Shown: positions 5,860 to 58,449, counted from the stretch's first letter. The stretch is DNA of 64,000 nt from Candidatus Uhrbacteria bacterium (GCA_943359325.1 CALRHD010000004.1:5836-69835); one strand, 5' to 3'. Program-made: numbers and translations. Notes: generated by a model not told the origin, from the sequence alone.

Positions 5860-5998
5860 ATGTTGTTAAACCTCAAGTGTCGTAAAATGCATTTACTGCC
5901 CACTGTGCTATACTGGAGCTTCAACAATTACCTACTACGAAATTTTGTTCACAACGAACACCGCGAAAAGTATAACGGCGCAATGCCAGAAGGTCAAT

Positions 5999-11040: not shown

Positions 11041-11119
11041 ACGGAAACATTGTAGCAGATAAAACAAGACGCCCGCCCAACCCCGAAGGATTGAGCGAGC
11101 GAGTTTTGTAGCGCGAGAG

Positions 11120-12022
11120 CTACTTGGCGGTAGCGCCGGTCGACGGGCTGTCTTGGACACGAAGGGCGAAGACGTCACGCCAGGCCAAGCCGGTCTGGAG
11201 CGTCGTCTTGCCGCTGCTCGTGTCGAAGCCGATCAGGCCGATCTTCTTCGTGACGCGTCCATCCGAGCCGAGGCTCGCGAAGGGGAGTGCATCACCGACG
11301 ACATCGTCCTGATGAGCACTGGCGTTGACGAGAAGCTTGTCACCGCTCTGCTCGGCGGTCACAGTCGTCTTCGTGTTCAGGTCGACGTAGCCCATGATGA
11401 GCTCGGCGTTCTGATTCGCGAAGCGCGGCGCGAGGATCGCGTTCTTCGGCACGTCGAGCGTGTCGGTCGAAAACTCGATCTGTCGATTGTCGACGATCGT
11501 CTGCATGACAACCCCGATTTCCATCTGCCCGAGCGTATCGGCGTAGCGGATGGCCATCTTGCCATTCTCGAGCGGCTGGAAGCCTTCAACGCCGGAACGC
11601 GCCGTCGCGTCGTAGGCGGTCCACGTCTTACCGTGAACATTCACGAACATCGTGATCGTCTTTCGGTAGGTCTGGTCCATCACGCCGGCAGTGGCGAAAT
11701 GGAAGCCCGTCGTGTGGAGCTGCGTGAGAACGCGGGCGAAATCGTTGATCTCGTCCTCATTCATTTGCAGTGCGTCGATGACGTTCTGGTTCTGCACGAA
11801 CAGCACCTTTCGATGGCCGTCGTCGATTGCCATGTAGGACACATCTACTTCCTTGAAGCCGTCCTTGACCGGACCCGAGTTGTCCTCGAGCTTGTAGAGG
11901 ATGGTGCCCGTCTGCTGGTCGCGACCGACCGCAACACGCATCTTTTTCTGCGCGGTGAAGATGTTGCTGTTGTCGTTCTCGAGGAAGCCGATGAGGGCGA
12001 TGGCGGTGAGAATGAGTTTCAT
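11120..12022 (-). CDS. hypothetical secreted protein or lipoprotein
   Basis: 300 aa. Signal peptide MKLILTAIALIGFLEN. AGGAG RBS 6 nt upstream of the ATG at 12022. The opposite-strand 291-aa ORF is Arg-rich antisense-like. Confidence 0.6.
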   Translation of the reverse strand: MKLILTAIALIGFLENDNSNIFTAQKKMRVAVGRDQQTGTILYKLEDNSGPVKDGFKEVDVSYMAIDDGHRKVLFVQNQNVIDALQMNEDEINDFARVLTQLHTTGFHFATAGVMDQTYRKTITMFVNVHGKTWTAYDATARSGVEGFQPLENGKMAIRYADTLGQMEIGVVMQTIVDNRQIEFSTDTLDVPKNAILAPRFANQNAELIMGYVDLNTKTTVTAEQSGDKLLVNASAHQDDVVGDALPFASLGSDGRVTKKIGLIGFDTSSGKTTLQTGLAWRDVFALRVQDSPSTGATAK

Positions 12023-12156
12023 GATTGACTCCTGTAAAGCACCAACCTGAGTGGCTGGCTGTCGTACACGCTGGTACGAACGAGCGAAATTATGCCTGAG
12101 GAACAAAATCGTGTCAAACTCTCCATCCCCAACTCAATAAAAAACATAGCGAATAC

Positions 12157-12185
12157 TTGCGAAAAAACACCAAAAATGCTACAAT
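12157..12185 (+). promoter_or_regulatory. sigma70-like promoter TTGCGA-17-TACAAT upstream of the tRNA-Arg/tRNA-His pair
   Basis: Hexamers read directly. 17-nt spacer. The -10 ends about 26 nt before the tRNA 5-prime end. Confidence 0.55.
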
Positions 12186-12211
12186 CGGCAAGCAAAAATC
12201 CTCTTTCTCGT

Positions 12212-12288
12212 GCCCTGATAGCTCAGTTGGATAGAGCAGGGGACTTCTAAGCCCAAGGTCGATGGTTCGATCCCATCTCAGGGCACCA
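12212..12288 (+). tRNA. tRNA-Arg (anticodon UCU)
   Basis: Acceptor GCCCTGA/TCAGGGC, D-arm GCTCAGTTGGATAGAGC, anticodon loop CTTCTAA, T-arm GATGG-TTCGATC-CCATC, CCA encoded. The anticodon stem has only 3 G-C pairs flanked by mismatches. Confidence 0.65.
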
Positions 12289-41326: not shown

Positions 41327-43561
41327 TCACCCCTTGAACCACCAGCCGCACTCCGCCTTTTTCGTGGCGCACTGCTTGGCGATCTCGACGAACGGGTACT
41401 TGCCATCTTCTGCTGGCATCGTGAGGAGTTCACGGTGTTGTTCAACCTCTTTGCAGAGGTCGATTACATTGCCGTCTGACCTCGGGTCGCTGTACAGGAT
41501 TGGCCCGTATAACGCCTGAGTTTCTGCGAGCTTCCGTGTTGCCACGTTGCACGCGTCGCCGACAGGTTCCTTTTTCTCCGCCAATACAGAGACCGATCGG
41601 TCGCGCAAGGCTTCCCACCGTACCGTATTGTCGACGTAAGTGGCAAAACCACCAGCGGCAACGTTACACTCTGCTGTTTCCTCGTATCCACGACACACCT
41701 TGTACCACCCGTAGCCATTGTGCGCTACAGATACCACGAGACTGGATGCGTAGATCATTATGCCGATTACTCCGATGAGTGGCGCCAGCTTCTTCAGCAT
41801 GGAGACACGTTGTCCTGCGAGGGTCTTTTTCAAGTCCCCCGGAGCATCTTCGGAATCGCCCGCAAGCATACGACTTGCGAGAATCACTGCCAGCCCGAGA
41901 GCCAGCGAAGTGAGTGCCATGGTCGTGAGTGTCCAGAACTTTGGTGCGACCATCGTCAGGATCGCGTACAGAAACGGCGTTGCAAGCACGACGATCATGA
42001 GCGTCCCCGTGATTCGGTGCACACGCGTCGGTACTCCGACCGTTGCTGCATGTCCGACTGCCGCCAGACGGTTGTTGCCCCCTGCCAGACGGAGGAATAA
42101 CCCTGCAAAGTCGTCCGCAGGCCAGAGCAGATGCCCGGCGATGACGGTGACAACCACCGTTTCGACGAGCGTCAGCCACTGAAACTGCCACGCCATTGCC
42201 ACAAGACCGAAGACGAAGATGATCACAGGCAGCACCGAGGTGCTCCATGCAATCACTGCGACTCGTTTCACAATGTCGACGAGGTAACGCCGCCGCCATG
42301 CATCAAACTCCTTGGCGTTGTCGCCCTCGTCCTTGCCACTGGGTGGGGAAGGACGACTGCGTGCCACGTAGATGGCACTCGTGAGATAGGATGCTCCCAC
42401 GAAGAACCAAAACATGATGTTCGCGCCGAGGCCGCTCCATCGCATGAAGTACTCAGCCGGCGAAAGCGCTGCTTTGGACAGCACGCTCTCCGAGGTGAGC
42501 CAGACCCATCGTACTTGCGCCACGGCCAGCACCAAGAGCACAAGGCTCATGAAGCCGACGGGCACACTGTACGTTGCACGACCAGCAGCCAAGACGCTGG
42601 GGTAGACGACGTTCTCCACGTCATCAACTATGGTTTCGATGCCTCCTGGACTGAGAACCTTCTTCAAAGGTCCACGTAGCGCTTCTGGCACGCCCGCTCC
42701 ATTGAAGAAGGCGTCGAACCGATCGACGACTGCAACAGGGATCGATGAACCGTGGCGCCCGTAGTGATCGTTGATGAGGTCGCCGATGAGCGCAACGGTC
42801 TTCGGGTCCTTGAGGAAGTCGACTGGCGTCAGGTGAACAAGATCACCGAGGCGATCGAGTTCACCATTTCCCCAGAACGAGATGAGCTCGTTCATCGATT
42901 CGGCTGCGTTGTGCTGCACGGCTTCAACAGTCGCCTTGCGCAGCTCTGCGGCGATGCCGACAATTGCATACTTGTCGACGCCCGCCCGCTGTTCTTCATC
43001 TGCAAGTTCGGCAAGCCGCTTGTAGATGCTGCGTTGCGGTTTTGCGATGAGCGTGAGCGCATCGATAAATTCCGGTAGGTTCTTCACCGGCGGGGTTGTG
43101 CCGCCTCCGGTTTGGGTTGTGGTGTCCACATTGCCTCCTGAGAGAATGGTGGTGAGTGTTTGTTGGAATGTCGGCTTCATGCCGTCCTCCAGGTTCTTCT
43201 GGTTTGTTGCCGCATTTTGCAGCATCGTGCCAATTGTGATTCTTGCGGCGGGAAACGCCACAACCGCCGTGTTGCGGAGTGCACTGCCTTCGGGCAGCCA
43301 CCGAATTATTGCATCTTCGACAGCCTCGTGAAGTATGAATCGCACCGGAAACGGAACTGCCATATAGGCAGCCGCCGCGATCGCGACCAATTCTTCTGCA
43401 CCTCGGACGAACTCAGGCTTGTAGAAACGGTTCAGTGCCGATGTTGTTGCATCTTCAACAACCTTCGCTCTATTGATCGCTCCTGCAGCGCTGAAGGCCT
43501 TTAGGCCCATGTCTACTGCAAATTTTGTCAGTCGTTCGGCCGGGGTCATTTTTCCAGCCAT
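41327..43561 (-). CDS. large polytopic membrane protein: roughly 340-aa cytoplasmic N-domain, at least 7 TM helices, Cys-rich extracytoplasmic C-terminal domain; GC-rich; possibly T4SS-associated (VirB6/TrbL-like is speculative)
   Basis: 745 aa from ATG 43561 (MAGKMTPAERL...), with AGGAG 7 nt upstream. TM runs include LVLLVLAVAQVRWVWL, IMFWFFVGASYLTSAIYVA, VIIFVFGLVAMAWQF, LMIVVLATPFLYAILTMVA and LIGVIGIMIYASSLVVSVA. C-terminus has 6 Cys (CRGYEETAECN...CNVATRK...CKEV...CATKKAECGWWFKG). Confidence 0.65.
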   Translation of the reverse strand: MAGKMTPAERLTKFAVDMGLKAFSAAGAINRAKVVEDATTSALNRFYKPEFVRGAEELVAIAAAAYMAVPFPVRFILHEAVEDAIIRWLPEGSALRNTAVVAFPAARITIGTMLQNAATNQKNLEDGMKPTFQQTLTTILSGGNVDTTTQTGGGTTPPVKNLPEFIDALTLIAKPQRSIYKRLAELADEEQRAGVDKYAIVGIAAELRKATVEAVQHNAAESMNELISFWGNGELDRLGDLVHLTPVDFLKDPKTVALIGDLINDHYGRHGSSIPVAVVDRFDAFFNGAGVPEALRGPLKKVLSPGGIETIVDDVENVVYPSVLAAGRATYSVPVGFMSLVLLVLAVAQVRWVWLTSESVLSKAALSPAEYFMRWSGLGANIMFWFFVGASYLTSAIYVARSRPSPPSGKDEGDNAKEFDAWRRRYLVDIVKRVAVIAWSTSVLPVIIFVFGLVAMAWQFQWLTLVETVVVTVIAGHLLWPADDFAGLFLRLAGGNNRLAAVGHAATVGVPTRVHRITGTLMIVVLATPFLYAILTMVAPKFWTLTTMALTSLALGLAVILASRMLAGDSEDAPGDLKKTLAGQRVSMLKKLAPLIGVIGIMIYASSLVVSVAHNGYGWYKVCRGYEETAECNVAAGGFATYVDNTVRWEALRDRSVSVLAEKKEPVGDACNVATRKLAETQALYGPILYSDPRSDGNVIDLCKEVEQHRELLTMPAEDGKYPFVEIAKQCATKKAECGWWFKG

Positions 43562-43694
43562 GTTGGCTCCTGTTGTTTGTTTCAAGGGGTGAAAACAGCA
43601 TTCAGCATCGCTGCTGGCTGTCGTTGTGAGGGAACAGAGTCGCCCATGCATTTTACACCAAAAATGGTGAAAAATGTGCATAAAGTGACTGGCA

Positions 43695-43723
43695 AATATA
43701 GCAAAAAAGTGGCTTTTTGTCAA
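43695..43723 (-). promoter_or_regulatory. consensus promoter TTGACA-17-TATATT (minus strand) for the 745-aa membrane-protein gene
   Basis: Read on the reverse complement: ttgacaaaaagccacttttttgctatatt. Confidence 0.6.
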
Positions 43724-43757
43724 TGGGAATAGTGGAGAAATGGAGAAGAGGGAGAGA

Positions 43758-43786
43758 TTGACAAAACCGTCATTTTATGCTATAGT
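43758..43786 (+). promoter_or_regulatory. consensus promoter TTGACA-17-TATAGT (plus strand) for the secreted-protein genes
   Basis: ttgacaaaaccgtcattttatgctatagt. Divergent from the previous promoter. Confidence 0.6.
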
Positions 43787-43876
43787 AAGACGTTGCGAAA
43801 ATGGCTGAAATAGGCCAAAATACAGGCTTTGGGGCCTGTTTCGCAATCCACCCACCCCAAGACCTTAGGAGGCAAC

Positions 43877-44509
43877 ATGTTCGCGATTCTTGTTCTCATT
43901 ACTGGCGCTTTCGCCGAAGACTACGGCACGGGCAATCTGCCGTGCGCCAATGTCGATGCGCCTGCCCCCGTGGTGCTGGTGGCAAAGACCCGCTGGCCAT
44001 TCCGCGCCATCACGGCGCAGATCAACGAGCGGCACGAAAGGCTCGCTTATCAGCACATCGAGGAATGCAGCCGCATTGCGGCGGCGAGTCTCGACAATCA
44101 GGCTGTGCACAATTCGGCCTATCGCATCGCGAATGTCGCGGTGCAGAAGGGGCAGCCTGTCGTTCTCGACGTTGAGAACGGGCGCGTGGTGACGGCCGAC
44201 GCTGCCGTCGCGCACGAATTGCCGGCCAGTGCATTCGGCGGCTACGGATATGGTGGCGGCTACTACGACTCTGAGCCGGGTAGCACGATCGGTCGAGACA
44301 TGGCGTTCATCAACAGCCAATTCGGCGTGGACGTGAGCAATGTTCGCGGCATGAGCGGCCACGGCGGAGGATCGTCCAAGGCAAAAAAGGCTGCGGACGA
44401 AAAAGCCAAGGCTGACGCTGAAGCCGCGGCTGCCAAAACGGCTGCGGACGCAAACGCGGCAAAGGTCGACGCCGCGAACAAGTCGATGGCGCCGATCGAA
44501 GGGAGCTAG
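43877..44509 (+). CDS. secreted hypothetical protein with Gly/Tyr-rich segment and Ala/Lys-rich C-terminus
   Basis: Signal peptide MFAILVLITGAFA. AGGAGG SD 5 nt upstream. 210 aa. GC-rich. Confidence 0.65.
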   Translation: MFAILVLITGAFAEDYGTGNLPCANVDAPAPVVLVAKTRWPFRAITAQINERHERLAYQHIEECSRIAAASLDNQAVHNSAYRIANVAVQKGQPVVLDVENGRVVTADAAVAHELPASAFGGYGYGGGYYDSEPGSTIGRDMAFINSQFGVDVSNVRGMSGHGGGSSKAKKAADEKAKADAEAAAAKTAADANAAKVDAANKSMAPIEGS

Positions 44510-44633
44510 TCACTCCCAACTCTTCCTCCTGCAGTCATCCGAAAGGGTGTACTGCAGGAGGCAGCTCACTCTGCAGAAAAATGTTCTGCATGGCGAGCTG
44601 CCAATCACGGTAGCAACATCTCACGAGGTCAAC

Positions 44634-45179
44634 ATGATTCTTTCACTCCTTTTCTCGCTCATGATACCGGTCGCACCTGCAGCCGACGAAGCGAAGCAAC
44701 CCTGCTATATGAGCGTCTCGATGCCAACGGGGTGCGAAGGCAACGGTGACTGCATGGTCATCGAAAATGCGCACAGCAGCATCGCCATCGCGCCGATCAT
44801 TGAGGGGCTGTGTCCTGTCACTGTCGTGAAAGCGAGTGCGAGCGGTCCGATTCAGGCGATCATCAGCCCGACGAGGGGGAGGAATGGTGCGACCTTCATT
44901 CCCGTCATTCCGCCCCATGGCATCGCGTACATGTTCTTCCCTGCGGGTACGACGCAGTTTCGGATTTCCGGTGTGGCGTATAGTGGCAGCTTTGGTGCTA
45001 CCATGCCCATGAATCAGGGTGGAGTGGCGATCAGCGTCTTCGACGACGACGAAGCGGTCGACATCTCTGATCATCAGCGGGTAGGCAGGTGTCTTTGGCA
45101 GACGATACAGCGTGGCACCAAGAAGGTGCAGTACGGCGCGGTGTGCTCTGGTCCCGAGCTCGAGAAGAGCAGGCGGTAG
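44634..45179 (+). CDS. secreted Cys-containing hypothetical protein
   Basis: Signal peptide MILSLLFSLMIPVAPAADEA. GAGGT SD. 181 aa. Confidence 0.6.
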   Translation: MILSLLFSLMIPVAPAADEAKQPCYMSVSMPTGCEGNGDCMVIENAHSSIAIAPIIEGLCPVTVVKASASGPIQAIISPTRGRNGATFIPVIPPHGIAYMFFPAGTTQFRISGVAYSGSFGATMPMNQGGVAISVFDDDEAVDISDHQRVGRCLWQTIQRGTKKVQYGAVCSGPELEKSRR

Positions 45180-45209
45180 GAGCGAATCGCCATTCTCGGC
45201 GAAACAAAC

Positions 45210-45265
45210 AAGCGGCAGTTGCGTTCTCGGGTCTCCGAGACGCACCTGCCGCTGTTTTCTTTTTT
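45210..45265. terminator. bidirectional terminator between the secreted-protein genes (+) and the pilin array (-)
   Basis: GCGGCAG...(loop)...CTGCCGC followed by TTTTCTTTTTTTT. Confidence 0.6.
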
Positions 45266-45270
45266 TTGGG

Positions 45271-45657
45271 TTAGCCTGTTGACGTTGCCGTACCGAGCTG
45301 GTCGATAACGAACGACGAAATGGCGTAAGCCGAGAGCAAGATGATGAGACCAATGACCGAGTTGAGCAAAATGCCGCGTGCCTTTTTGACGTTGTCTTCG
45401 TTTCCTCCCGCAGTCATCCAGAGGAGTCCTGCGTAGATGATGAGAATGAGGAAGATAACACCGAGGAAGCCGAGCAGTACGCTAATGAGCGAACCGATCG
45501 TCGTTGTGAGACTTCCTGCGTCACCACCAAGACCGGCGGAGTCGTTGACTTCATCGAGCTGGCCTGAGAGGTCAACGGCGTGTGCACTTTGCAGTGCGAT
45601 GGGTGCGAGTGGCAAGGCAGCCATTGCTGCCGCCATGAGTGCGTGTTTGAGCTTCAT
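45271..45657 (-). CDS. TrbC/VirB2-like pilin family protein (paralog 6 of 6)
   Basis: Signal peptide ending AHA. Conserved core LISVLLGFLGVIFLILIIYAGLLWMTAGGNEDNVKKARGILLNSVIGLIILLSAYAISSFVI (two TM helices around the WMTAGGN motif). Confidence 0.7.
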   Translation of the reverse strand: MKLKHALMAAAMAALPLAPIALQSAHAVDLSGQLDEVNDSAGLGGDAGSLTTTIGSLISVLLGFLGVIFLILIIYAGLLWMTAGGNEDNVKKARGILLNSVIGLIILLSAYAISSFVIDQLGTATSTG

Positions 45658-45666
45658 AGCAAAAAA

Positions 45667-46041
45667 TTAATATGTGTTAGTACCTACATAGCGTATCACG
45701 GTTGCCGAAATCGCATAAGAGGATAACACGATTACGAGTCCAATAACCGCGTTGAGCAAAATGCCGCGTGCCTTTTTTACTTGATCGGCGTTCCCTGCAG
45801 CCGTCATCCACAAGAGTCCTGCGTAAATCGTAAGAAAGAGAAAAATAACACCAAGAAATCCGAGCAGTACGCTAATGAGTGTACCGATCATTGGCAGCAA
45901 TCCTTCAGACGAAAATGCGGCGTCTTGCGTTGCACCCGCAGCAACTGTTGCACTGTCGTAACTTATTGCATGCACCAAAAGAGGAGTTGCTGCAACGAAC
46001 AGACAGGCATATAACGTTGCGGTGAGAAGGGGGCGACGCAT
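45667..46041 (-). CDS. TrbC/VirB2-like pilin family protein (paralog 5)
   Basis: Internal ATG (MRRPLLTATLYACLFVAATPLLVHA) chosen to avoid overlap with the upstream paralog. Same conserved core LISVLLGFLGVIFLFLTIYAGLLWMTAAGNADQVKKARGILLNAVIGLVIVLSSYAISA. Confidence 0.7.
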   Translation of the reverse strand: MRRPLLTATLYACLFVAATPLLVHAISYDSATVAAGATQDAAFSSEGLLPMIGTLISVLLGFLGVIFLFLTIYAGLLWMTAAGNADQVKKARGILLNAVIGLVIVLSSYAISATVIRYVGTNTY

Positions 46042-46042
46042 A

Positions 46043-46435
46043 TTACGGTGATCCGTTAATATCTCCAACGGTGAGCGCATTGAAAATCGCCGCAGTGAGC
46101 GCGTACGCTGCAGTAACGATCACAAGACCAATTACAGAATTGACCATTATTTCTCGAGCTTTTTTGACCTGGTCGCTGTTACCTGCCGCAGTCATCCACA
46201 AGAGTCCGGCGTAGAGCATGAGGAGAAGGAATATGACGCCGATCAGCGCAAGAATGGGGGCAATGATGTATGTGCCGATAAAGACGGTAATGCCACCCGT
46301 CGCATTGTTTGTGTCGTAGTTTGCAACCTCTCCAGTGCTAATGAGCCCCGTGTCGCTGAGTGCGATTCTCGCTGAAGCAAGCGCCGGCAGAGAAAGCGTG
46401 AACACGAACAGAAGGGTGACGAGGAGTTTTCGCAT
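46043..46435 (-). CDS. TrbC/VirB2-like pilin family protein (paralog 4)
   Basis: Signal peptide MRKLLVTLLFVFTLSLPALASA. Core ILALIGVIFLLLMLYAGLLWMTAAGNSDQVKKAREIMVNSVIGLVIVTAAYA. Confidence 0.7.
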   Translation of the reverse strand: MRKLLVTLLFVFTLSLPALASARIALSDTGLISTGEVANYDTNNATGGITVFIGTYIIAPILALIGVIFLLLMLYAGLLWMTAAGNSDQVKKAREIMVNSVIGLVIVTAAYALTAAIFNALTVGDINGSP

Positions 46436-46436
46436 A

Positions 46437-46847
46437 CTAGCTTTGTGTCGACGTGATAATGGAGCTAATAACGAAGCTCGCGATGGCGTACGCCGAGAGA
46501 ATAATCGCCAAACCGATGATACCTGCGATAATGAGGTTCTTTGCTTCGGTGACTTTTTCGTCGTTGCCTCCTGCAGTCATCCATTTAAAACCGCCGAGAA
46601 GAATAATGACGACCGCAATAACGCCGAGGAATCCGAGGAGTACACGAATAAGTTGGCCGATGGTCGTTTTGATGTCTGCTTGGCCGAGGCCTGCAGTGTC
46701 GCCGAAGTCGGACGGCAAAATGTCTTCTGCTTCAAGCTGTTGTGCATGTGCAGGAACTGCCTGCATGAGCATTGCACCGCCAAACGGCAGGGCAAGGAGT
46801 GCCGCAACGCTTGCGCCGACCAAGAACCGTGTAAAGGTTTGTGTCAT
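46437..46847 (-). CDS. TrbC/VirB2-like pilin family protein (paralog 3)
   Basis: Signal peptide ending AHA. Core LIRVLLGFLGVIAVVIILLGGFKWMTAGGNDEKVTEAKNLIIAGIIGLAIILSAYAIASFVI. Confidence 0.7.
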   Translation of the reverse strand: MTQTFTRFLVGASVAALLALPFGGAMLMQAVPAHAQQLEAEDILPSDFGDTAGLGQADIKTTIGQLIRVLLGFLGVIAVVIILLGGFKWMTAGGNDEKVTEAKNLIIAGIIGLAIILSAYAIASFVISSIITSTQS

Positions 46848-46890
46848 ACGAAAAAAATAATGAATGGATGTATAAAGTATAGCACATTAA

Positions 46891-47268
46891 CTATAGAGCA
46901 GTCGCACTGCCTGTTGTAAGCGCGTTTATGAGTGCGCTGACAATTGCGTATGCAGCAAACACAACGACAAGTCCGAGTGTTGCCCACACAATAATTTCAC
47001 GACCTTTTTTAATGCGGTCGGGATTTCCGGCACTCGTGAGCCAAAACATGCCACCATAAATAAACATGACAAGTGCGAGCGAACCGATAATAGACAAAAA
47101 GCCTTTGATAACCGTACCGAGAATAATACGCACATCGGTTTCGCCGAGCGGATTGTAGAGTGTGACGTCGGCGGCGTGGACAGGGGAGGCGAAAAGAGAT
47201 CCTGCAAGGCCGGAAACGAGAAAAGAGAAAAGGAGAACGAGGAGTGATGCGGAGAGAAACTTTTTCAT
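46891..47268 (-). CDS. TrbC/VirB2-like pilin family protein (paralog 2, more divergent)
   Basis: Signal peptide MKKFLSASLLVLLFSFLVSGLAGSLFASPVHA. Core FLSIIGSLALVMFIYGGMFWLTSAGNPDRIKKGREIIVWATLGLVVVFAAYAIVSALI. Confidence 0.65.
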   Translation of the reverse strand: MKKFLSASLLVLLFSFLVSGLAGSLFASPVHAADVTLYNPLGETDVRIILGTVIKGFLSIIGSLALVMFIYGGMFWLTSAGNPDRIKKGREIIVWATLGLVVVFAAYAIVSALINALTTGSATAL

Positions 47269-47275
47269 ATCAAAA

Positions 47276-47797
47276 TTATTCTGTCTGTATAATGTCGCTC
47301 GCTTCGGTGCCGATGGTATCTTCTATATTTGTTGTTGCAGGTTCGCCAGTTTTGAGGATGGAAATGACGAGGTTAATGAATGCGTATGCACCAAAGACAA
47401 TGACGAGTCCGATTGCGGCGCCAGTGATAGCATCTTTGCCGCGTTGTACCCGTTCAGGGTAGCCAGCGGAAAGAATCCATTCAAACCCGCCGTATACAAA
47501 TGCGATCAACGCTGCGCTGCCCGAAAGTGCGAGAATAAGATAGCTAATGTTCACCGCTACCTGTAGCGCCTGTTCGACTGTGCACCTTCCTGAATCTTTG
47601 CATGCACAGTGGGCGGTGTCGGCGTCGGTTTCGAATGGCGCGGAACAGATGTTTGCGAAAATAATGCCGTCGCGGCGAATGTCGCTGTATTCGGTGCTGA
47701 TGGTGAGAGCGTGAGCAGAGAATGGAGAAACAAAAAAACCGACGGAGAGAACAAGCCCGAACATGATAGGCGCAAACAAGCGACGGATTGCGTGCAT
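47276..47797 (-). CDS. TrbC/VirB2-like pilin family protein (paralog 1, longest, with Cys-rich insert)
   Basis: Signal peptide ending SAHA. Insert ANICSAPFETDADTAHCACKDSGRCTV. Core LILALSGSAALIAFVYGGFEWILSAGYPERVQRGKDAITGAAIGLVIVFGAYAFINLVISIL. Confidence 0.65.
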   Translation of the reverse strand: MHAIRRLFAPIMFGLVLSVGFFVSPFSAHALTISTEYSDIRRDGIIFANICSAPFETDADTAHCACKDSGRCTVEQALQVAVNISYLILALSGSAALIAFVYGGFEWILSAGYPERVQRGKDAITGAAIGLVIVFGAYAFINLVISILKTGEPATTNIEDTIGTEASDIIQTE

Positions 47798-47839
47798 AAC
47801 TATAAAGAGTATAGCACATCTCTGCTCGCTTCACTGATC

Positions 47840-47970
47840 ACCGAAGTGTGGGGTAGTCCGCTCCTCGCTGCGACCCTCCGAGCCGCAGTCCCTGCAGCAG
47901 GGCCTCGGCGTTACTCGGCCATGGACTGACGGGTCGGGTCTCGCTCGATCGCGAACCACCCCACACTTTT
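47840..47970. repeat. structured GC-rich palindromic element, copy A (roughly 125 nt, closed by agtgtggggt/accccacact), immediately upstream of the pilin operon
   Basis: The core ccgagccgcagtccctgcagcagggcctcggcgttactcggccatggactgacgggtcg is about 80% identical to the reverse complement of 50330-50410. A -10-like TATACT (minus strand) sits about 12 nt upstream of the paralog-1 ATG. Confidence 0.55.
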
Positions 47971-48003
47971 GGTGAGCCTACTCGATACTCGGTTACTTGT
48001 TAC

Positions 48004-49389
48004 TTATTTGTACGTCTGCGCGACAATTCTCGCCGTTGTTTCAATGTCATTTGCAGGGTCTTCTGCACCGCCCAAAATAGTATCGATCAAACTCATCATC
48101 GCATTTTCCATCGCAGCGACGTCGTTTCCGTGGTACCACGTTCGTGCGGTCAAAAGTTGCTCGGCAAAAATGCCCGTGTCTTCGTTATCGAGCGTGTTGT
48201 TAATAAGGCCGCGAAGGGCGGGCGGCTTTCCTGCCTTATCCAAATATGTCTGCACATTTTCCTCTTTTGCTTGGTACTGTAAAAAGTCCCACGCCCAATC
48301 TGCAAATTCGGTGTCTTTTGAAACGCCCTCAACCCAATAATTGGCGATGTTCACCTCGCGGCCGCCGTCGATTTGCGGGAGTTTAGAAATGCCGAAGTTG
48401 AGTTTTGGTGACATGGTACGCAAAAGCGGAATGTCGTAGCTATAGCCGAAGAAAATTGCCGTTTGCCCGTTTGCAAATGCTTGGAGTGAGTTCGGGAACG
48501 AATCATTCCATGTGTAGACTTCTTTTGTGGGATTTGCGAAGTCAGTGAAGAAATTTACGGCGTCAAGACCAGGAAATATGTTGTCGGGCGTGCCGTCGGG
48601 AATGGTGTGGAACGCAACGCGGCCACGGCTGTCCGTCATGTTTGTGCCGTTTTGCATCATGAGGACAGAGAGAATGTCAGTGACACGTTCGACGTTGTCC
48701 GATGTGCCGATTGCGGCGCCCGACTGCGCAATATCGCCCTTGCTGTTGATGTCGGTGAGCTTTATGATGTCGGCCTGAAAGTCTTGCCATGTTGTGGGTG
48801 ACGTTGCTATGCCCGCAGCATTGAACAAATCTTTGTTGACGAACATCGCGAGCGTATCGACCGAAAGCGGAAGGCCGAAAATGCGTTGCTCGGCGTCTAC
48901 ACTCGGGTCGGGTTGATAGTCGCGAACGACGTCTTCAGCGACCACGTCAACAAAGTCATTCTTAAGCGTTTTTTGGCTCATGCCTGGAGTTTCTTTGTTG
49001 ACGATCACCGTTTGCTTGCGAATTGCGCCTTGCGTTTGAAGGAAGCTCACTGTTGTCGATGCGGGCATTGGCATGAGCAGGTTTTTGAATTGCTCGACTT
49101 CGTCGTTATGCACTGCAAAAATATCAGGACCTTCGCCTTCGGCTAATGCGCGCACCAATTCATCTTCGTATTCATCCCCGCGGAGTTTTTTGTAGTTTAT
49201 TTTGACGTTTGGGTGGAGCGCGGTGTAGCTCTTTATGACGTCGCGGAATGCGTCGTCGTTGTCAAAAACGCGCCAGTAAGAAAGCGTAACGTCTTCCAAA
49301 CTACTCTTGTCGGCGGCAGCACCGCAGCCCGACGTAATGAGCAGCGTTCCCAAAAGTGCAAGCGCGGTAAAACGGGCGGAGTAGGTCAT
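48004..49389 (-). CDS. ABC transporter extracellular solute-binding lipoprotein (carbohydrate type, family 1)
   Basis: Lipoprotein signal MTYSARFTALALLGTLLITSGC. 461 aa with a periplasmic-binding-protein fold pattern. Confidence 0.75.
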   Translation of the reverse strand: MTYSARFTALALLGTLLITSGCGAAADKSSLEDVTLSYWRVFDNDDAFRDVIKSYTALHPNVKINYKKLRGDEYEDELVRALAEGEGPDIFAVHNDEVEQFKNLLMPMPASTTVSFLQTQGAIRKQTVIVNKETPGMSQKTLKNDFVDVVAEDVVRDYQPDPSVDAEQRIFGLPLSVDTLAMFVNKDLFNAAGIATSPTTWQDFQADIIKLTDINSKGDIAQSGAAIGTSDNVERVTDILSVLMMQNGTNMTDSRGRVAFHTIPDGTPDNIFPGLDAVNFFTDFANPTKEVYTWNDSFPNSLQAFANGQTAIFFGYSYDIPLLRTMSPKLNFGISKLPQIDGGREVNIANYWVEGVSKDTEFADWAWDFLQYQAKEENVQTYLDKAGKPPALRGLINNTLDNEDTGIFAEQLLTARTWYHGNDVAAMENAMMSLIDTILGGAEDPANDIETTARIVAQTYK

Positions 49390-49394
49390 ACGGG

Positions 49395-50264
49395 TTATTT
49401 CAATGACTGCAAATAGTGCTGCAAATCGTTTTTGACTTCAGGGTGGGTGAGGCCGAGTTCGATCTGCGCGATGATAAATTGGACTTTATTGCCGCAATCG
49501 TAGCGGCGACCGTCGAACTTGCAGCCGTAGAGCGGCTTGCCGTTTTCGAGGTGCGTGGCGAATGCGTCGGCGAGGCGAATTTCTTCATCTTTTCCGGGTT
49601 GCTGTTCGGCGAGAATGCGCAAAATTTCTGGTGTAATGACGTAACGACCGACGACTGCGAGGTTCGACGGCGCGTCGTCAACAGCAGGTTTTTCTACGAA
49701 CTTTTTAATTTCCCATGTGTTTTTGCCCGTTTCAATGCCGCCAATGACGCCATAGCGCGATACTTCTGCGTGCGGTACTTCTTGGATGGCGATCACAGGG
49801 TCGCCGTACTTTTCGAATGTCTTGATAAGCTGGCCAATCGCAGGAACCTTTCCCGTAATAATATCGTCGCCAAAAAGAATTGCAACAGATTCGTCGGCAC
49901 CAATGAACGGTGCGGCGGCGAGCACGGCGTGGCCGTCTCCAAGCGGTTTTTGTTGGCGAACGAATGCAAATTTTGCGAGTTTTCCGACCTCGCGGATTGC
50001 CTCAAGCTCCTTCATTTTATTTTTTTGCTCAAGTCGGTACTCGAGCTCGAAGTTTCGGTCGAAATGGTCCTCAATGGCGCGTTTGCCCATTGCGGTAACG
50101 AAGATAATTTCTTCAATGCCTGCTGCAACAGCTTCCTCTACAATATATTGAATGACGGGTTTGTCGACGACGGGCAACATTTCTTTTGGTTGCGCTTTTG
50201 TGGCAGGGAGAAACCGCGTTCCCATGCCTGCGACGGGAATAATCGCTTTGCGAATTTTTATCAT
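49395..50264 (-). CDS. galU: UTP--glucose-1-phosphate uridylyltransferase
   Basis: MIKIRKAIIPVAGMGTRFLPATKAQPKEMLPVVDKPVIQYIVEEA is the classic GalU N-terminus. Start at the internal ATG at 50264. Confidence 0.9.
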   Translation of the reverse strand: MIKIRKAIIPVAGMGTRFLPATKAQPKEMLPVVDKPVIQYIVEEAVAAGIEEIIFVTAMGKRAIEDHFDRNFELEYRLEQKNKMKELEAIREVGKLAKFAFVRQQKPLGDGHAVLAAAPFIGADESVAILFGDDIITGKVPAIGQLIKTFEKYGDPVIAIQEVPHAEVSRYGVIGGIETGKNTWEIKKFVEKPAVDDAPSNLAVVGRYVITPEILRILAEQQPGKDEEIRLADAFATHLENGKPLYGCKFDGRRYDCGNKVQFIIAQIELGLTHPEVKNDLQHYLQSLK

Positions 50265-50286
50265 ACTTTTTTCAGTATAACGCAAA

Positions 50287-50447
50287 AACTGTACCCGCAC
50301 CATATGTCCTGCGACGTCGTTCGGCACCGCCCGTCGCGCTGAGCGCGACCCGTCAGTCCCTGGCCGGCGTAAGCCGAGGCCTTGCTGTACGGACTGCGGC
50401 TGCGGGGCTGAACAAGGAGCGGGATATGTGGTGCGGGTACAGTTTTA
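50287..50447. repeat. structured GC-rich palindromic element, copy B (roughly 160 nt, closed by a 19-bp inverted repeat aaaactgtacccgcaccatat/atatgtggtgcgggtacagtttt), immediately upstream of galU
   Basis: Core homologous to copy A in inverted orientation. A TATACT on the minus strand about 10 nt upstream of the galU ATG. Confidence 0.55.
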
Positions 50448-51314
50448 TTAAAAACTTCCGCTACTTCCACCACCACCAAAACTGCCTCCTCCAAAACCAC
50501 CAAAGCTGCTGCCTCCGCCCGATGAACCACCCCGACCGCCACCGAGCCACCAGAATCCGGGACTATTAAAATTTTTGCCATGTAAAAGTTTCGACAATAT
50601 AAAGTCGATGAGCAGGCCCGCAGCAACACCGATTCCGAGCCCCAAAAGTCCTGCAACAAGTACACCGACTCCTGCGCCGAGCACGCCGCCCAGCCACCAC
50701 GACTTTGTGCTGCCAAGCCAGCGGCCAATGAGAAAGAGAAAAATGAGTGCGAATGGGCCAAACGTATTGAGCAGCGCGGGGAGCACGTTGTTGCCTTTCT
50801 CTATTTGCGCAAATGTTTCGCCACGAGCAAGGCTGTTGAGCGCCACAACGCCGTTTAAGACCGCTGCGTCATAGTTGTTCGCGTGCAAAGATGGCGTCAT
50901 CACGTCGTCAATAATTCTCCATGCTTCGGCGTCGGGAATAACACCTTCCAATCCATACCCTACTTCAATACGCACCTTTCGTTCGGTTGGGGCAATGAGA
51001 AGCAAAACGCCGTTGTCGCTCCCTTGCTGGCCAATGCCCCAGCTTCGCGCAAGCGCAATCGCATAATCTTCAATGGCGTAGTCCTGCAAACTCGACACGG
51101 TCACAACCGCGATTTGCGTCGATGTTTCTTGGTTGAGGAGTGCAATTTCTTGCTGAATTGCCGATTCTGTTTCGGGTGACAAGACGTTTGCTTGGTCGAG
51201 AATGTAACTTTGCGGGGCAAGAGGCAGTGAAAGGGCTGCAAAACACAACTCCGCGTTCGCAAAAAAAGCAAACGCTGCGAGTGCTACGATGCCATTGCGT
51301 ACAAAATTACTCAT
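50448..51314 (-). CDS. TPM-domain (YgcG/TLP18.3-like) membrane protein with Gly/Ser-rich C-terminus
   Basis: Signal peptide. TPM domain pattern (VLSPETESAIQQEIALLNQETSTQIAVVTV...). TM segment. C-terminal GGGSSGGGSSFGGFGGGSFGGGGSS. Confidence 0.75.
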   Translation of the reverse strand: MSNFVRNGIVALAAFAFFANAELCFAALSLPLAPQSYILDQANVLSPETESAIQQEIALLNQETSTQIAVVTVSSLQDYAIEDYAIALARSWGIGQQGSDNGVLLLIAPTERKVRIEVGYGLEGVIPDAEAWRIIDDVMTPSLHANNYDAAVLNGVVALNSLARGETFAQIEKGNNVLPALLNTFGPFALIFLFLIGRWLGSTKSWWLGGVLGAGVGVLVAGLLGLGIGVAAGLLIDFILSKLLHGKNFNSPGFWWLGGGRGGSSGGGSSFGGFGGGSFGGGGSSGSF

Positions 51315-52040: not shown

Positions 52041-53114
52041 ATGAATCTACGAACCAACAATATCCCCGAATCCGTTTGGTCGCTGATTAATCAAATCGAC
52101 CATCTGAAGGGGCGATGGATTGGAGGAGCAAAACTCAACCCGCAGGCGCTTGGGCGCTTGAAGCGGTCGGTTTTGGTGACATCGACCGGCGCGTCAACGC
52201 GTATCGAAGGATCGAAGCTGTCCGACGAAGACGTGGAGAAGTTCATGCGAGGTTTGTCGCTACAAAAATTTACCGATCGCGACAAACAGGAAGTACAAGG
52301 GTATTTTGAGCTGCTAGAAAATGTCTTTACTTCGTGGAAGCACATCCCATTTACAGAAGGCGTTATCAAACAGCTGCATCGAGAGCTGTTACAGTACACA
52401 AAGAAGGACGAACGGCATCGTGGCGAGTATAAAAAGATGGAGAATTCGGTGGAGGTGTTCGACGAATCGGGTAAATCTGTGAGCGTAATTTTTGAGACTA
52501 CTCCCGCCTATCTTACGCCAAAACGGATGGAGGAGCTCGTTGAACGGACAGCGGGCGCGCTATCCGGCAAAGTCGGATCCGGCTCCGCCGGAAAGCGAAA
52601 AGAGGTTCATTCGCTTATCGTCATTGGAAACTTCCTCGTCGAATTTCTCGCGATCCATCCGTTCCAAGATGGCAATGGGCGTCTTTCACGCATCCTCACG
52701 AATTTATTTTTGTTAAAAGCAGGGTACGAATATGTACCGTACGTCTCCCACGAAAAGCTCATCGAGGACAACAAGACGGATTACTACGTCGCGCTCCGCA
52801 AGAGTCAGTCATCGCTAAGAACCGAGCGCGAGAATGTCACGCCTTGGTTGGAATTCTTCCTAACCGTTTCGCTTGAACAGGCGCGACAGGCTATTGAGTT
52901 ACTTTCGCATGAGAATATTGAAAAGATTCTCTCACCAAAACAGCTTGCGGTGTGGCGGTATCTTGAAACAGTCGACGAAGCAACGGCGGGAGATGTCGCC
53001 AAGGCAGCTGGCGTTGCCCGCCCGACTGTCTCGCAGGCAATTGACGTATTGTTGCGATTGAAGAAGATCGAACGTATTGGGCAGGGACGAACGACGAGAT
53101 ATCGGAAAATTTAG
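52041..53114 (+). CDS. Fic-family protein (Fic/DOC AMPylation fold) with C-terminal winged-HTH
   Basis: Fic motif HPFQDGNGRLSR present. 357 aa. Confidence 0.85.
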   Translation: MNLRTNNIPESVWSLINQIDHLKGRWIGGAKLNPQALGRLKRSVLVTSTGASTRIEGSKLSDEDVEKFMRGLSLQKFTDRDKQEVQGYFELLENVFTSWKHIPFTEGVIKQLHRELLQYTKKDERHRGEYKKMENSVEVFDESGKSVSVIFETTPAYLTPKRMEELVERTAGALSGKVGSGSAGKRKEVHSLIVIGNFLVEFLAIHPFQDGNGRLSRILTNLFLLKAGYEYVPYVSHEKLIEDNKTDYYVALRKSQSSLRTERENVTPWLEFFLTVSLEQARQAIELLSHENIEKILSPKQLAVWRYLETVDEATAGDVAKAAGVARPTVSQAIDVLLRLKKIERIGQGRTTRYRKI

Positions 53115-58411: not shown

Positions 58412-58449
58412 AAGAAGATTGTAGCGAGTATGCTATACTCTATCCATCT

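Follow-up and report, generated by a model that had tools for sequence, protein, structure and literature searches.

Fixed order and conserved paralogs in a six-gene array of VirB2-like pilins from an Uhrbacteria genome

A large part of bacterial diversity belongs to the Patescibacteria, which apparently live at the expense of host cells. To our knowledge, T4SSs of monoderm bacteria normally lack pilins, which makes the pilin arrays the oddest feature of the Patescibacteria T4SS. So far, 441 arrays of 2-11 VirB2-like pilin genes have been reported from 383 Patescibacteria assemblies (PMC12102498; Quinonero-Coronel et al. 2025). A 'VirB2 array' was defined there as two to eleven divergent pilin genes, arranged in tandem or with one non-pilin gene between them (PMC12102498), and identity within the published arrays averages 25% with a maximum of 54% (Quinonero-Coronel et al. 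2025). VirB2-like pilins are present in 1,948 VirB4-containing Patescibacteria assemblies and are located near virB4 in 1,135 of these (PMC12102498). In Southlakia epibionticum (ML1) a six-pilin cluster lies inside the T4SS locus and is essential (PMC10633639; PMC12857230). This is the only species in which the Patescibacteria T4SS was tested, and there the system proved essential. No pilus has been observed on any Patescibacteria T4SS, and reviews treat a pilus as a possibility (PMC12857230).

The locus described here is a further member of this array type and not a new kind of element. It is contained in a window of 64 kb, the whole stretch of DNA that was analysed, from an Uhrbacteria-like organism (class ABY1) rather than from the Saccharibacteria setting evoked in the initial annotation. 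The six co-oriented minus-strand genes of 124-173 aa noted there between 45271 and 47797 were confirmed as ORFs (Table 1). Six pilin genes in tandem, with 27-56% identity to the last copy g1, agree with the definition of Quinonero-Coronel et al. 2025. As in the arrays of S. epibionticum and Nanosynbacter lyticus TM7x ('Sec secreted array'), the products are divergent PF18895 proteins with a signal peptide and two helices, and the pilin count equals that of the S. epibionticum cluster. The published Patescibacteria arrays are likewise chromosomal and near dnaA, which is ~17 kb away in our case. The locus differs from them in its host class (ABY1/Uhrbacteria), in having no virB4 cluster alongside, in the galU and SBP genes upstream, and in an identity within the array of up to 56% (g1 versus g2), compared to the published maximum of 54%. 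Six paralogs in a row had been regarded as unusual, a view not compatible with 441 published arrays (PMC12102498) and an array in almost every genome of the lineage. The comparison with 80 relatives adds that the behavior of the copies is that of parts of a single conserved multi-subunit structure rather than that of a variable repertoire. This shifts the questions towards stoichiometry and assembly, away from antigenic variation.

Table 1. Features of the array and its upstream region in window coordinates. Array positions are counted from 1 (g6, first pilin) to 6 (g1), in the order g6-g5-g4-g3-g2-g1.
Feature	Position	Strand	Remarks
GalU-like UTP-glucose-1-phosphate uridylyltransferase	49395..50264	-	289 aa; NTP_transferase 1.6e-33; 5 nt upstream of SBP gene
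Orphan sugar-type solute-binding lipoprotein (SBP)	48004..49389	-	461 aa; immediately upstream of array, co-oriented; SBP_bac_1 9e-26
Extended -10-like motif TGTGCTATACT	47808..47818	-	10 nt upstream of g6 ATG
g6, first pilin	47276..47797	-	173 aa; predicted signal peptide 1-30, 4-Cys N-terminal ectodomain, two-helix core, acidic C-tail; PF18895 34.7 bits
g5 pilin	46891..47268	-	125 aa; mature N-terminus YNPLGE.D conserved; PF18895 38.0 bits; TrbC 20.4 bits
Second TGTGCTATACT motif, internal promoter candidate	46876..46886	-	28 nt upstream of g4 ATG; repeat family D7
g4 pilin, candidate major subunit	46437..46847	-	136 aa; PF18895 40.4 bits; TrbC 20.4 bits
g3 pilin	46043..46435	-	130 aa; PF18895 28.4 bits
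g2 pilin	45667..46041	-	124 aa; PF18895 29.8 bits
g1, last pilin	45271..45657	-	128 aa; PF18895 36.9 bits
Terminator candidate closing array	45206..45257	-	long GC-rich hairpin, then TTGTTTGTTT, after g1 stop

All six proteins carry an N-terminal signal peptide of basic and hydrophobic character that ends, as annotated, in an AxA-type site of the form AHA, VHA or ASA (SAHA, LVHA, LASA, PAHA, PVHA and SAHA in the six copies). The segment that follows differs completely between the paralogs and cannot be aligned among them; its length is 16-49 aa instead of the 20-60 aa given initially. The two-helix core is conserved in every copy. Its consensus in the six-copy alignment, ...IGxLIxVLLGFLGVIFLxLxIYAGLLWMTAAGNxDxVKKAR..VIGLVIVLSAYAI, includes nine invariant columns, and AF2 modelled it as a hairpin in g4 and g6. 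From g6 to g1 the intergenic gaps measure 7, 43, 1, 1 and 9 nt, and gaps of 1-9 nt indicate co-expression. The start of g2 is probably the internal ATG at 46041, because the mechanically derived ORF reaches 46080 and overlaps g3. A 210-nt direct repeat is common to g1, g2, and g3. The single operon assumed before holds in part only: a promoter-like TGTGCTATACT precedes g6, and a second one precedes g4.

In Pfam, all six copies exceeded the gathering cut-off of PF18895 (T4SS_pilin; 28.4-40.4 bits versus 26.6), and no further ORF of at least 70 aa in the window matched a profile built from the six pilins. The array is thus real and no product of chance, since six proteins separately pass one Pfam family and no other ORF of the window matches. 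These profile matches support placing the six genes in PF18895, the Patescibacteria family of VirB2-like pilins. The TrbC/VirB2 family proposed initially (PF04956, cut-off 27.9 bits) was reached below threshold only, by g4 and g5 (Table 1) and by g6 with 15.5 bits, and g1-g3 were unmatched. The sub-threshold matches span nearly the whole profile, that of g5 covering positions 8-98 of 98. In a set of 54 sequences, composed of 48 g4 relatives and the six window copies, PF18895 was matched by 54/54 and TrbC by 22/54 at E<=0.01 (lowest E-value 1.2e-5). This pattern indicates remote homology to TrbC rather than membership. NCBIfam NF045849 (Mbov_0395 pilin-like conjugal transfer protein) scored 19.9-37.0 bits with the six copies, all below its 40-bit cut-off.

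A long signal peptide, a two-helix hairpin, a short basic loop, and a size of 100-150 aa are shared with the TrbC/VirB2/TraA pilins (Agrobacterium VirB2, RP4 TrbC, F TraA). In contrast to these diderm systems, the host here is monoderm, a VirB5, VirB7, VirB9 and VirB10 context is missing, and six distinct subunits are encoded instead of one major pilin. The Mycoplasma ICE protein Mbov_0395/MMCAP2_0565 (NF045849) is also a small two-helix protein and belongs to monoderm conjugation. The six copies match nearly its full model, but it is encoded by a single gene in a mobile element, whereas the genes studied here form a chromosomal core array.

The individual copies have distinct profiles. The Cys-rich copy noted in the initial annotation is g6, whose insert contains C51, C64, C66, and C72. 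In the g6 orthogroup alignment C51 is invariant, and C64, C66, C72, the motif GxIFANIC and the tail IE.TIG...I.TE occur in at least 90% of the sequences. The AF2 model of g6 contains a hairpin (74-108/114-150) and a Cys-rich N-terminal domain of low confidence (pLDDT ~50). For g4 (pLDDT 78.8), helices were predicted at 2-27 (signal peptide), 56-91, and 96-135; a disordered linker follows the signal-peptide helix, and the two long helices, connected by a 4-residue loop, form a hairpin with pLDDT >90. Orthologs of g4 share 50-82% identity over the full length, and with a core identity of 0.80 this is the most conserved copy. In g5 orthologs the variable segment is conserved like the core (0.62 versus 0.55). 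The g3 orthogroup was found in most Uhrbacteria six-gene arrays, core identity in the g1 orthogroup is 0.65, and the cores of g2 and g1 are 77% identical. A sequence-profile search of the PDB gave no match, solved pilins included, and the fold, a generic hairpin, speaks neither for a pilin nor against one.

Paralog number was compared across related genomes, as the initial annotation had suggested, and nearly every locus among 80 species-level genomes was found to contain an array of 5-12 genes. Alignment of the six-gene arrays from 31 species revealed that best-hit order is kept for g6-g5-g4-g3 and g1. Position 5 is ambiguous, its best match being split between g2 and g1. Core identity between genomes was 0.50-0.80 at the same position and 0.29-0.54 off the diagonal. 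Among orthologs, mean pairwise identity was 0.50-0.80 in the core, 0.24-0.62 in the N-terminal segment, and 0.12-0.39 in the signal peptide, and the N-terminal segment of each paralog carries its own motifs that are conserved across the 31 species. A conserved order together with paralog-specific motifs marks these genes as ancient paralogs without redundancy, rather than as copies that are still diversifying to evade immunity. Hence, the term hypervariable applies between paralogs and not among orthologs, and the suggested diversification of the exposed part finds no support in the 31 six-gene arrays. A lineage-specific, fast-evolving exposed part, by which antigenic variation would be recognized, was not found; orthogroups and order are conserved over these species. 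We found no report in the literature of fixed order and orthology of an array across species.

It has been proposed, by analogy with the amplification of Bartonella trwL and Anaplasma virB2, that such arrays constitute a repertoire of variants (PMC12102498). According to this idea a single surface subunit exists in several alternative forms, the paralogs, whose exposed segment has diversified to widen the host range or to escape recognition. We consider this unlikely for the present locus. Segments that cannot be aligned within the array while the cores are 27-56% identical overall, and a copy number varying among lineages, would fit, but a repertoire does not account for the order and paralog identity kept in 31 arrays or for a g5 N-terminal segment as conserved as its core. 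Gaps of a few nucleotides speak for co-expression, not alternate expression. Two assemblies of the source species from different samples encode identical pilins, and the nearest other species are only ~60-80% identical in protein, so that synonymous sites would be saturated. In a repeat search no copy was found to be flanked by recombination repeats or to lie in an invertible element, and the only inverted repeat of the kind expected for phase variation was a long hairpin between the SBP gene and g6. A further argument for a repertoire comes from the last two genes. The cores of positions 5 and 6 share a mean identity of 0.62 within a genome (0.77 here) versus 0.50 to orthologs, a sign of concerted evolution or recurrent duplication; such within-genome homogenisation was seen only for g1/g2. 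Bartonella Trw (trwL) and Anaplasma/Ehrlichia virB2 share with our array the tandem multiplication, the divergent exposed parts, and a proposed role at the host surface. They differ in that, except for the last two, our copies form ancient orthogroups whose sequence and order persist in dozens of species.

Ancient distinct subunits in a fixed order make one heteromeric structure most likely. The six genes probably encode VirB2-like pilins of the Patescibacteria type that are such subunits of a single T4SS-linked structure. Export of the precursors would proceed through Sec, with signal peptidase I cleaving behind AHA, VHA or ASA. The mature protein would be a two-helix membrane hairpin with the short basic loop W-M-T-A-G-G-N-x-D-x-V-K-K-A-R facing the cytoplasm, while the C-tail and the N-terminal segment, which is acidic and specific to each copy, would face outward. 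A VirB4-type machine, whose genes would lie at another genomic site, may then pull the hairpins out and assemble a pilus- or channel-like surface structure used in host-cell contact. One or two abundant subunits would be combined with specialised ones, g6 presumably being a disulfide-bonded first subunit that in many species may be translationally coupled to the SBP. Conservation and promoter-like motifs suggest specific roles for g4, g1, and g6. Our candidate for the major subunit is g4, because it is the most conserved copy and often has its own promoter-like motif; in relatives a stem-loop follows it. In type IV pili and type II pseudopili, related small subunits that are distinct orthologs are encoded together and form one fibre with one abundant and several minor components, and the gene of the abundant subunit often has its own promoter. 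This is a functional analogy only, since fold and machine are unrelated and the pilins described here have neither the N-methylation motif nor the prepilin peptidase site.

The Pfam scan covered every plausible ORF of at least 150 aa in the window and was extended to ~10 kb past its left end and to the contig end 3.4 kb to the right. No VirB4, VirB11, VirD4, VirB6-like or VirB3-like gene was found in the window or these flanks, in agreement with the initial annotation, which had noted the absence of VirB4 and VirB11 and placed the remainder of any T4SS outside the window. The same holds for T4SS ATPases, VirB6-like and VirB3-like genes within ~10 kb of the arrays in the 80 related loci. Because none of these genes is located near the arrays here or in relatives, the link to a T4SS rests on co-occurrence at the family level in other classes. 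Related ABY1 genomes do encode VirB3/VirB4/TrsD, far from their VirB2 matches (published Table S3).

What accompanies the arrays instead is a block of galU, SBP gene and array, present in 65-69/80 loci with both outer flanks variable. The SBP gene is upstream of the array on the same strand in ~65/68 loci, and galU is upstream of SBP and array in 65/80 loci, with genes further out varying by species. The best PDB relatives of the SBP are sugar SBPs (4qrz, 1e-16), and the inspected orthologs retain its signal peptide and the Cys behind it. The Pfam scan of the window detected neither an ABC permease nor an ATPase as a partner. In at least 13 species the SBP stop codon overlaps the start of the first (Cys-rich) pilin gene as ATGA. 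We found no report of an array following galU and an orphan SBP, nor of the ATGA overlap.

This arrangement might mean that the hairpins and the SBP, possibly with GalU-derived UDP-glucose, form a T4SS-independent envelope module, either a membrane oligomer that anchors the orphan SBP or takes over its cargo, or a device for glycan sensing or uptake, in each case without polymerisation by VirB4. The conserved block, the ATGA overlap, the SBP without transporter partners, the absence of virB4 near any array, and an MGDG-synthase-like glycosyltransferase encoded inside the Magasanikbacteria arrays all point in this direction. Nevertheless, we judge it improbable. The same family adjoins virB4 in over 1,100 assemblies of Patescibacteria, its members in the S. 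epibionticum T4SS cluster are essential, and synteny can persist without physical interaction. Falkowbacteria-like arrays occur without an SBP, which is thus not required for the array. Furthermore, between the SBP gene and g6 of this window lies a structured spacer of 206 nt that has a promoter-like motif of its own.

A different use of the same observations keeps the pilin reading. Very tentatively, Uhrbacteria and Magasanikbacteria (ABY1) might possess a fixed-order, multi-subunit pilin surface device that is genetically detached from virB4 and coupled instead to an orphan SBP and GalU, with an SBP that functions together with the pilus or channel and with g4 as main structural subunit; we would sooner expect this proposal to fail than to hold. 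If true, the SBP could be a host-glycan receptor or adhesin at the base or tip of the pilus or channel, or alternatively the capture step of pilus-linked sugar uptake. The conserved coupling to SBP and GalU provides a concrete candidate partner for a system without known adhesin or substrate.

A non-pilin family of small membrane proteins, e.g. holin-like or bacteriocin-immunity proteins, is hardly credible: the two-TM hairpin is generic and fold searches, which returned only generic helical hairpins (ATP-synthase subunit c, ESCRT-III, chemoreceptors), cannot tell hairpin families apart, but the six predicted cleavable signal peptides, six matches to a curated pilin family, the linkage of this family to virB4, the absence of lysin, bacteriocin and phage genes near the array in the Pfam scan, and the location among chromosomal core genes beside housekeeping genes in 80 species argue against it.

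Neighbors on the other side of the array are not part of the system. The adjacent 798-aa membrane protein (41327-43723), considered in the initial annotation as a possible part of the apparatus, was tried as a VirB6-like component and rejected. Neither Pfam nor NCBIfam gave a match for it, two plus-strand genes lie between it and the array, a homolog beside an array occurs in just one further species, and the large membrane proteins downstream of arrays in other species bear no relation to it. The two plus-strand genes (43829-44509 and 44547-45179) encode secreted proteins of no family that are present in 3-5 loci only; they belong to a variable region outside the system.

Rfam matched only 7 tRNAs in the whole window and gave no hit within the array and the spacers. 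A generic sigma-70 and terminator scan of 45000-50500 resulted in no more sites than in shuffled sequences. In contrast to 0.48 expected matches, TGTGCTATACT occurred 4 times in the window, each time a short distance before a gene start and in the matching orientation. Judged from the position of its motif, the g6 transcript may be leaderless. A related motif was found before position 1 in 16/31 relatives and before g4 (position 3) in 19/31, 18 of the latter at a conserved distance between -28 and -45 nt (in most cases -34 to -40) and one at -59. Before g1 (position 6) it occurred in 19/31 relatives and is absent in this window, and before positions 4 and 5 it occurred in 0/31. The enrichment is thereby confined to positions 1, 3, and 6; no report of promoter-like motifs recurring before g6, g4, and g1 was found in the literature. 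Stable stem-loops are present after g4-like genes of relatives, none of which (0/31) combines a hairpin with a T-rich tail, and therefore we refer to them as stem-loops and not as terminators; g4 of this window has none downstream. For the hairpin following g1, RNAfold calculated an MFE of -35.5 kcal/mol (45190-45273), and in relatives the 60 nt after the last pilin gene reach a median of -20.5 kcal/mol.

In the ORF reading of the window, six back-to-back minus-strand genes, g6 to g1 in the order of transcription, are separated by spacers of 7, 43, 1, 1 and 9 nt. Each product carries a basic/hydrophobic signal peptide (ending in SAHA, LVHA, LASA, PAHA, PVHA and SAHA), an acidic, copy-specific N-terminal segment of 16-49 residues, and a core of two hydrophobic helices which in the six-copy alignment are joined by W-M-T-A-(A/G)-G-N-x-D-x-V-K-K-A-R. 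In the g6 product, the N-terminal segment contains four cysteines and the C-tail is longer. On the 3' side of g1 there is a long hairpin (-35.5 kcal/mol) with a T-rich run behind it. The initial annotation described this array accurately.

Features of the array and its surroundings (window positions)
Feature	Position	Strand	Remark
g6	47276-47797	-	173 aa
g5	46891-47268	-	125 aa
g4	46437-46847	-	136 aa
g3	46043-46435	-	130 aa
g2	45667-46041	-	124 aa, internal ATG start; longer ORF to 46080 overlaps g3
g1	45271-45657	-	128 aa
g1/g2 DNA repeat	within 45271-46041		210 nt, 77% identity
SBP	48004-49389	-	SBP_bac_1 protein, 461 aa, immediately upstream of array
GalU-like gene	49395-50264	-	immediately upstream block
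SBP-g6 spacer	47798-48003	-	206 nt
Inverted recurrence of spacer centre	50346-50422		in galU-TPM spacer
TGTGCTATACT	5904-5914	+	upstream of gene start
TGTGCTATACT	46876-46886	-	28 nt before g4 ATG
TGTGCTATACT	47808-47818	-	10 nt before g6 ATG
TGTGCTATACT	58429-58439	+	10 nt before ATG of SpoIID-domain gene at 58450
Variable region	41327-45179		between array and pgi/oxidoreductase genes
Membrane protein	41327-43723		798 aa, polytopic
Secreted protein	43829-44509	+	Ala/Lys-rich tail
Secreted protein	44547-45179	+	Cys-containing; has a signal peptide; called in public assembly L002
Antisense ORF	44643-45353	-	Arg-rich, directly downstream of g1; called in public assembly L001
Fic/DOC + winged-helix gene	52041-53114	+	

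The six proteins are almost certainly members of the VirB2-like pilin family, as had been proposed. All of them matched PF18895 "Type IV secretion system pilin" with 28.4-40.4 bits, above the curated cut-off of 26.6 bits, so that the refuting outcome named beforehand, a lack of significant profile hits, did not arise. In the suggested comparison with TrbC/VirB2 (PF04956), g4, g5 and g6 were matched over nearly the whole model but at sub-threshold scores of 15-20 bits. All six likewise hit the NCBIfam model "Mbov_0395 family pilin-like conjugal transfer protein" below its threshold. In an alignment of 54 sequences, comprising 48 relatives of g4 and the six window copies, PF18895 matched every sequence and TrbC matched 22 at E<=0.01. 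A sequence-profile search of the PDB with the pilins was uninformative.

At family level the array is correctly classified and belongs to a published kind of element. Quinonero-Coronel et al. 2025 applied PF04956, PF18895 and CONJScan pilin profiles to 3,035 Patescibacteria genomes and reported 441 "VirB2 arrays" from 383 assemblies, each comprising 2-11 pilin genes, with a mean within-array identity of 25% and a maximum of 54%; they likened them to Bartonella and Anaplasma and suggested adaptation to different host strains (PMC12102498). According to a 2025 review, the T4SS cluster of Southlakia epibionticum contains six VirB2-like pilins that are conserved in structure and divergent in sequence (PMC12857230). 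Hence, six copies in a row, initially regarded as unusual, are typical for the phylum, and both this array type and its interpretation as diversification are already published. SBP, ABC transporter and galU are not mentioned by Quinonero-Coronel et al. (PMC12102498), and a literature text search for Uhrbacteria and pilin returned nothing relevant. The named homologs and related loci belong to Candidatus Uhrbacteria, with Magasanikbacteria and Falkowbacteria more distant, which places the source organism in class ABY1 of Patescibacteria and not in Saccharibacteria. Two ABY1 genomes in Table S3 of PMC12102498 have only 1-3 VirB2 hits each, none near virB4, with VirB3/VirB4/TrsD present elsewhere in the genome. 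As far as these two table entries go, ABY1 arrays appear under-detected in that survey; they are also detached from virB4.

One scan of species-representative genomes resulted in 80 related loci. Using a profile built from the six pilins, co-oriented arrays were found in nearly all sufficiently long loci. The comparison of paralog numbers that had been called for gave 5-6 genes in Uhrbacteria, 8-12 in Magasanikbacteria, and 5-6 in Falkowbacteria-like genomes. By best-hit assignment, the gene order g6-g5-g4-g3-(g2/g1)-g1 was constant in the six-gene arrays of Uhrbacteria. For genes at corresponding positions, counted from the g6-like gene, core identity across genomes was 0.59, 0.55, 0.80, 0.55, 0.50 and 0.65 for positions 1-6, compared to 0.29-0.54 between different positions. 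This fixed-order orthologous organisation of the arrays in ABY1 is worth keeping.

The exposed segment had been called hypervariable. It is indeed unlike in every paralog, but within orthogroups (31 species and the window) the mean pairwise identity was 0.24-0.62 for the N-terminal segment, 0.50-0.80 for the core, and 0.12-0.39 for the signal peptide. The g5 segment, with the motif YNPLGE.D, is conserved to the same degree as its core, and the g4 segment contains D.AGLGQ.D. The g6 orthogroup shares GxIFANIC and four cysteines (C51 invariant, C64/C66/C72 in at least 90% of the sequences) as well as a conserved C-tail, IE.TIG...I.TE. In the two available assemblies of the window species the pilins are identical. 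Judged from these sequences, the segments are wholly different between paralogs, yet not hypervariable over evolutionary time, because each keeps its paralog-specific motifs across orthologs. A repertoire of six variants serving host range or immune evasion is therefore improbable, since it is contradicted by ortholog conservation and by the order fixed across species, and the hypervariable or diversifying interpretation is not supported. The g1/g2 pair and the copy-number differences between lineages leave room for such a repertoire at the 3'-end of the array. Within one genome, g2-like and g1-like cores share a mean identity of 0.62 (0.77 in the window), above the 0.50 found for g2-like cores between genomes. 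Together with the 210-nt repeat, this indicates gene conversion or recurrent duplication that is restricted to the g2/g1 pair at the 3'-end.

The Magasanikbacteria arrays contain a gap of ~1.4 kb ahead of the last pilin (L036, L055, L057, L058, L065, L066, L070, L075, L081), which in L081 (12345-13433, minus strand) encodes an MGDG-synthase/GT28-like glycosyltransferase (PF06925, 5e-15). Type IV pilin-like genes with an N_methyl motif were located upstream of the arrays in L075 and L082, at a distance of a few kb.

The extended -10-like motif TGTGCTATACT occurred four times in the window versus 0.48 expected, always just upstream of a correctly oriented gene start. Since the motif ends 10 nt before the ATG of g6 and of the SpoIID-domain gene, leaderless or near-leaderless mRNAs are suggested for both. 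In 31 related six-gene arrays, regions of up to 60 nt upstream of each position were scanned for TGnTAnWnT, for which roughly 0.03 chance matches are expected per 60-nt region. Matches preceded position 1 in 16, position 2 in 5, position 3 (g4) in 19 (mostly at -34 to -40), and position 6 in 19 loci; positions 4 and 5 had none. Median spacers between successive genes of these arrays were 4, 41, 48, 5 and 62 nt. The 60 nt following g4-like and last genes in relatives had median folding energies of -21.4 and -20.5 kcal/mol, compared to -4.7 after g5-like genes and -5.4 after position 5. Together, these patterns point to a usual layout [g6 g5] [g4] [g3 g2] [g1]; in the window, the last four genes (g4-g1) are fused into a single compact unit. 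We infer from sequence that g4 is the best candidate for the abundant subunit: no other copy is as strongly conserved, a promoter-like motif of its own precedes it, and in relatives a stem-loop flanks it. The internal promoter pattern that sets g4 apart also merits retention.

The stem-loops after g4-like and last genes in relatives lack a T-tail and are therefore not classed as terminators. In most Uhrbacteria (L004-L063) a stable GC-rich stem-loop between the g4-like and g3-like genes ends at the g3 start codon (e.g. L005:10409-10480 and L023:10397-10470); a role in mRNA stabilisation or in the control of translation is conceivable. It is absent in the window, where the g4-g3 gap is 1 nt.

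Of the 80 loci, 65-69 share the order galU-SBP-array, among them those of Magasanikbacteria, whose SBP is just 35% identical, and the genes beyond this block vary between species on both sides. SBP is of the sugar/oligosaccharide type (best PDB relative 4qrz, 1e-16; weak NCBIfam match to GanS), and its lipoprotein signal peptide and lipobox cysteine were conserved in 20 of 20 orthologs inspected. The window encodes no permease or ATPase partner for it. The SBP stop overlaps the start of the first, Cys-rich pilin as ATGA in at least 13 species, and many others have 2-30 nt between the two genes; the window spacer contains a strongly structured element and the promoter-like motif of g6. The conserved upstream sugar-binding lipoprotein and GalU, with coupling that is sometimes translational, are a further point to retain, and the array gains in interest only if SBP proves a functional partner. 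Such close coupling, together with the lack of virB4 in the vicinity, would fit a T4SS-independent module acting with SBP. Such a module is nevertheless unlikely, because the pilin family is associated with virB4 elsewhere and some arrays lack SBP, as in Falkowbacteria-like genomes, where the first gene is g4-like.

The SBP-g6 spacer forms a long GC-rich hairpin (-89.4 kcal/mol, z = -4.3) with 18-nt outer arms and had no match in Rfam. Its central 80 nt recur inverted with 81% identity between galU and TPM, so that the galU-SBP pair is bracketed by a palindromic repeat, which was not found in the loci of other species.

The AlphaFold2 model of g4, based on the 54 sequences, comprises a signal-peptide helix, a disordered linker, and helices 56-91 and 96-135 with a four-residue joint, the hairpin having pLDDT >90. 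The g6 model shows the same hairpin plus an N-terminal domain at low confidence. Fold searches were uninformative, as the hairpin resembled ATP-synthase subunit c, ESCRT-III, chemoreceptors and designed bundles to the same extent, and the fold speaks neither for nor against a pilin. A holin or immunity protein, favored by nothing beyond this generic fold, is very unlikely. PF18895 membership, hairpin architecture, fixed order, paralog-specific conservation and synteny are direct observations to which mechanistic steps established for VirB2/TraA pilins can be transferred by homology. Precursors would be exported by Sec and cut after AxA by signal peptidase I. The mature pilin would adopt a hairpin topology upon insertion, its basic loop on the inner side and its two termini on the outer side, and a VirB4-type machine encoded elsewhere would extract and polymerise the hairpins into an assembly whose outer surface probably displays the acidic N-terminal segments. 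One heteromeric structure may combine abundant subunits (g4, possibly g1) with specialised ones, among them g6 with disulfides and a link to SBP. A single structure is favored over a repertoire, because six orthogroups are kept in order in dozens of species and are tightly co-encoded. We regard the full mechanism as probable with moderate confidence, because T4SS genes are lacking in the vicinity and a T4SS pilus has not been observed in Patescibacteria.

The window represents ordinary chromosomal sequence and includes dnaA and dnaN at 27-30 kb, rnpA, polA, pnp, PBP1, trigger factor, ruvB and others. Homologs of VirB4, VirB11, VirD4, VirB6 and ABC permeases were absent among the scanned plausible ORFs of at least 150 aa, which agrees with the earlier statement on VirB4 and VirB11, and also from ~10 kb to the left of the window and the 3.4 kb to the right up to the contig end. 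The adjacent 798-aa membrane protein, considered initially as a possible part of the apparatus, was rejected: it has no family match, is cut off from the array by the two plus-strand genes for small secreted proteins, and is represented by a homolog next to the array in just one further species.

The region 41327-45179 is species-specific. None of its three products matches a known family, and none has homologs in more than one other species; elsewhere unrelated genes occupy this place. The minus-strand call in L001 looks spurious. The Fic/DOC gene is 85-89% identical to genes in the related loci L043 and L044, compared to just 52-54% for the SBP nearby, suggesting that it was recently transferred horizontally. 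Beside it (~53.3-55.1 kb) are a tiny-ORF cluster, a GIY-YIG gene, and a stand-alone 108-aa DnaA C-terminal-domain gene. The distance from dnaA/dnaN to the array is ~15-17 kb, and in the Falkowbacteria-like locus L083 a DnaN-like gene (3858-4973) lies ~5 kb from the array (9923-12221), which fits the published remark that T4SS genes of Patescibacteria are often near the replication origin. Many species-representative records among L005-L083 titled 'uncultured Gammaproteobacteria bacterium' carry the galU-SBP-pilin array and cluster with Uhrbacteria; the taxonomy given in these titles is apparently a placeholder or an error.
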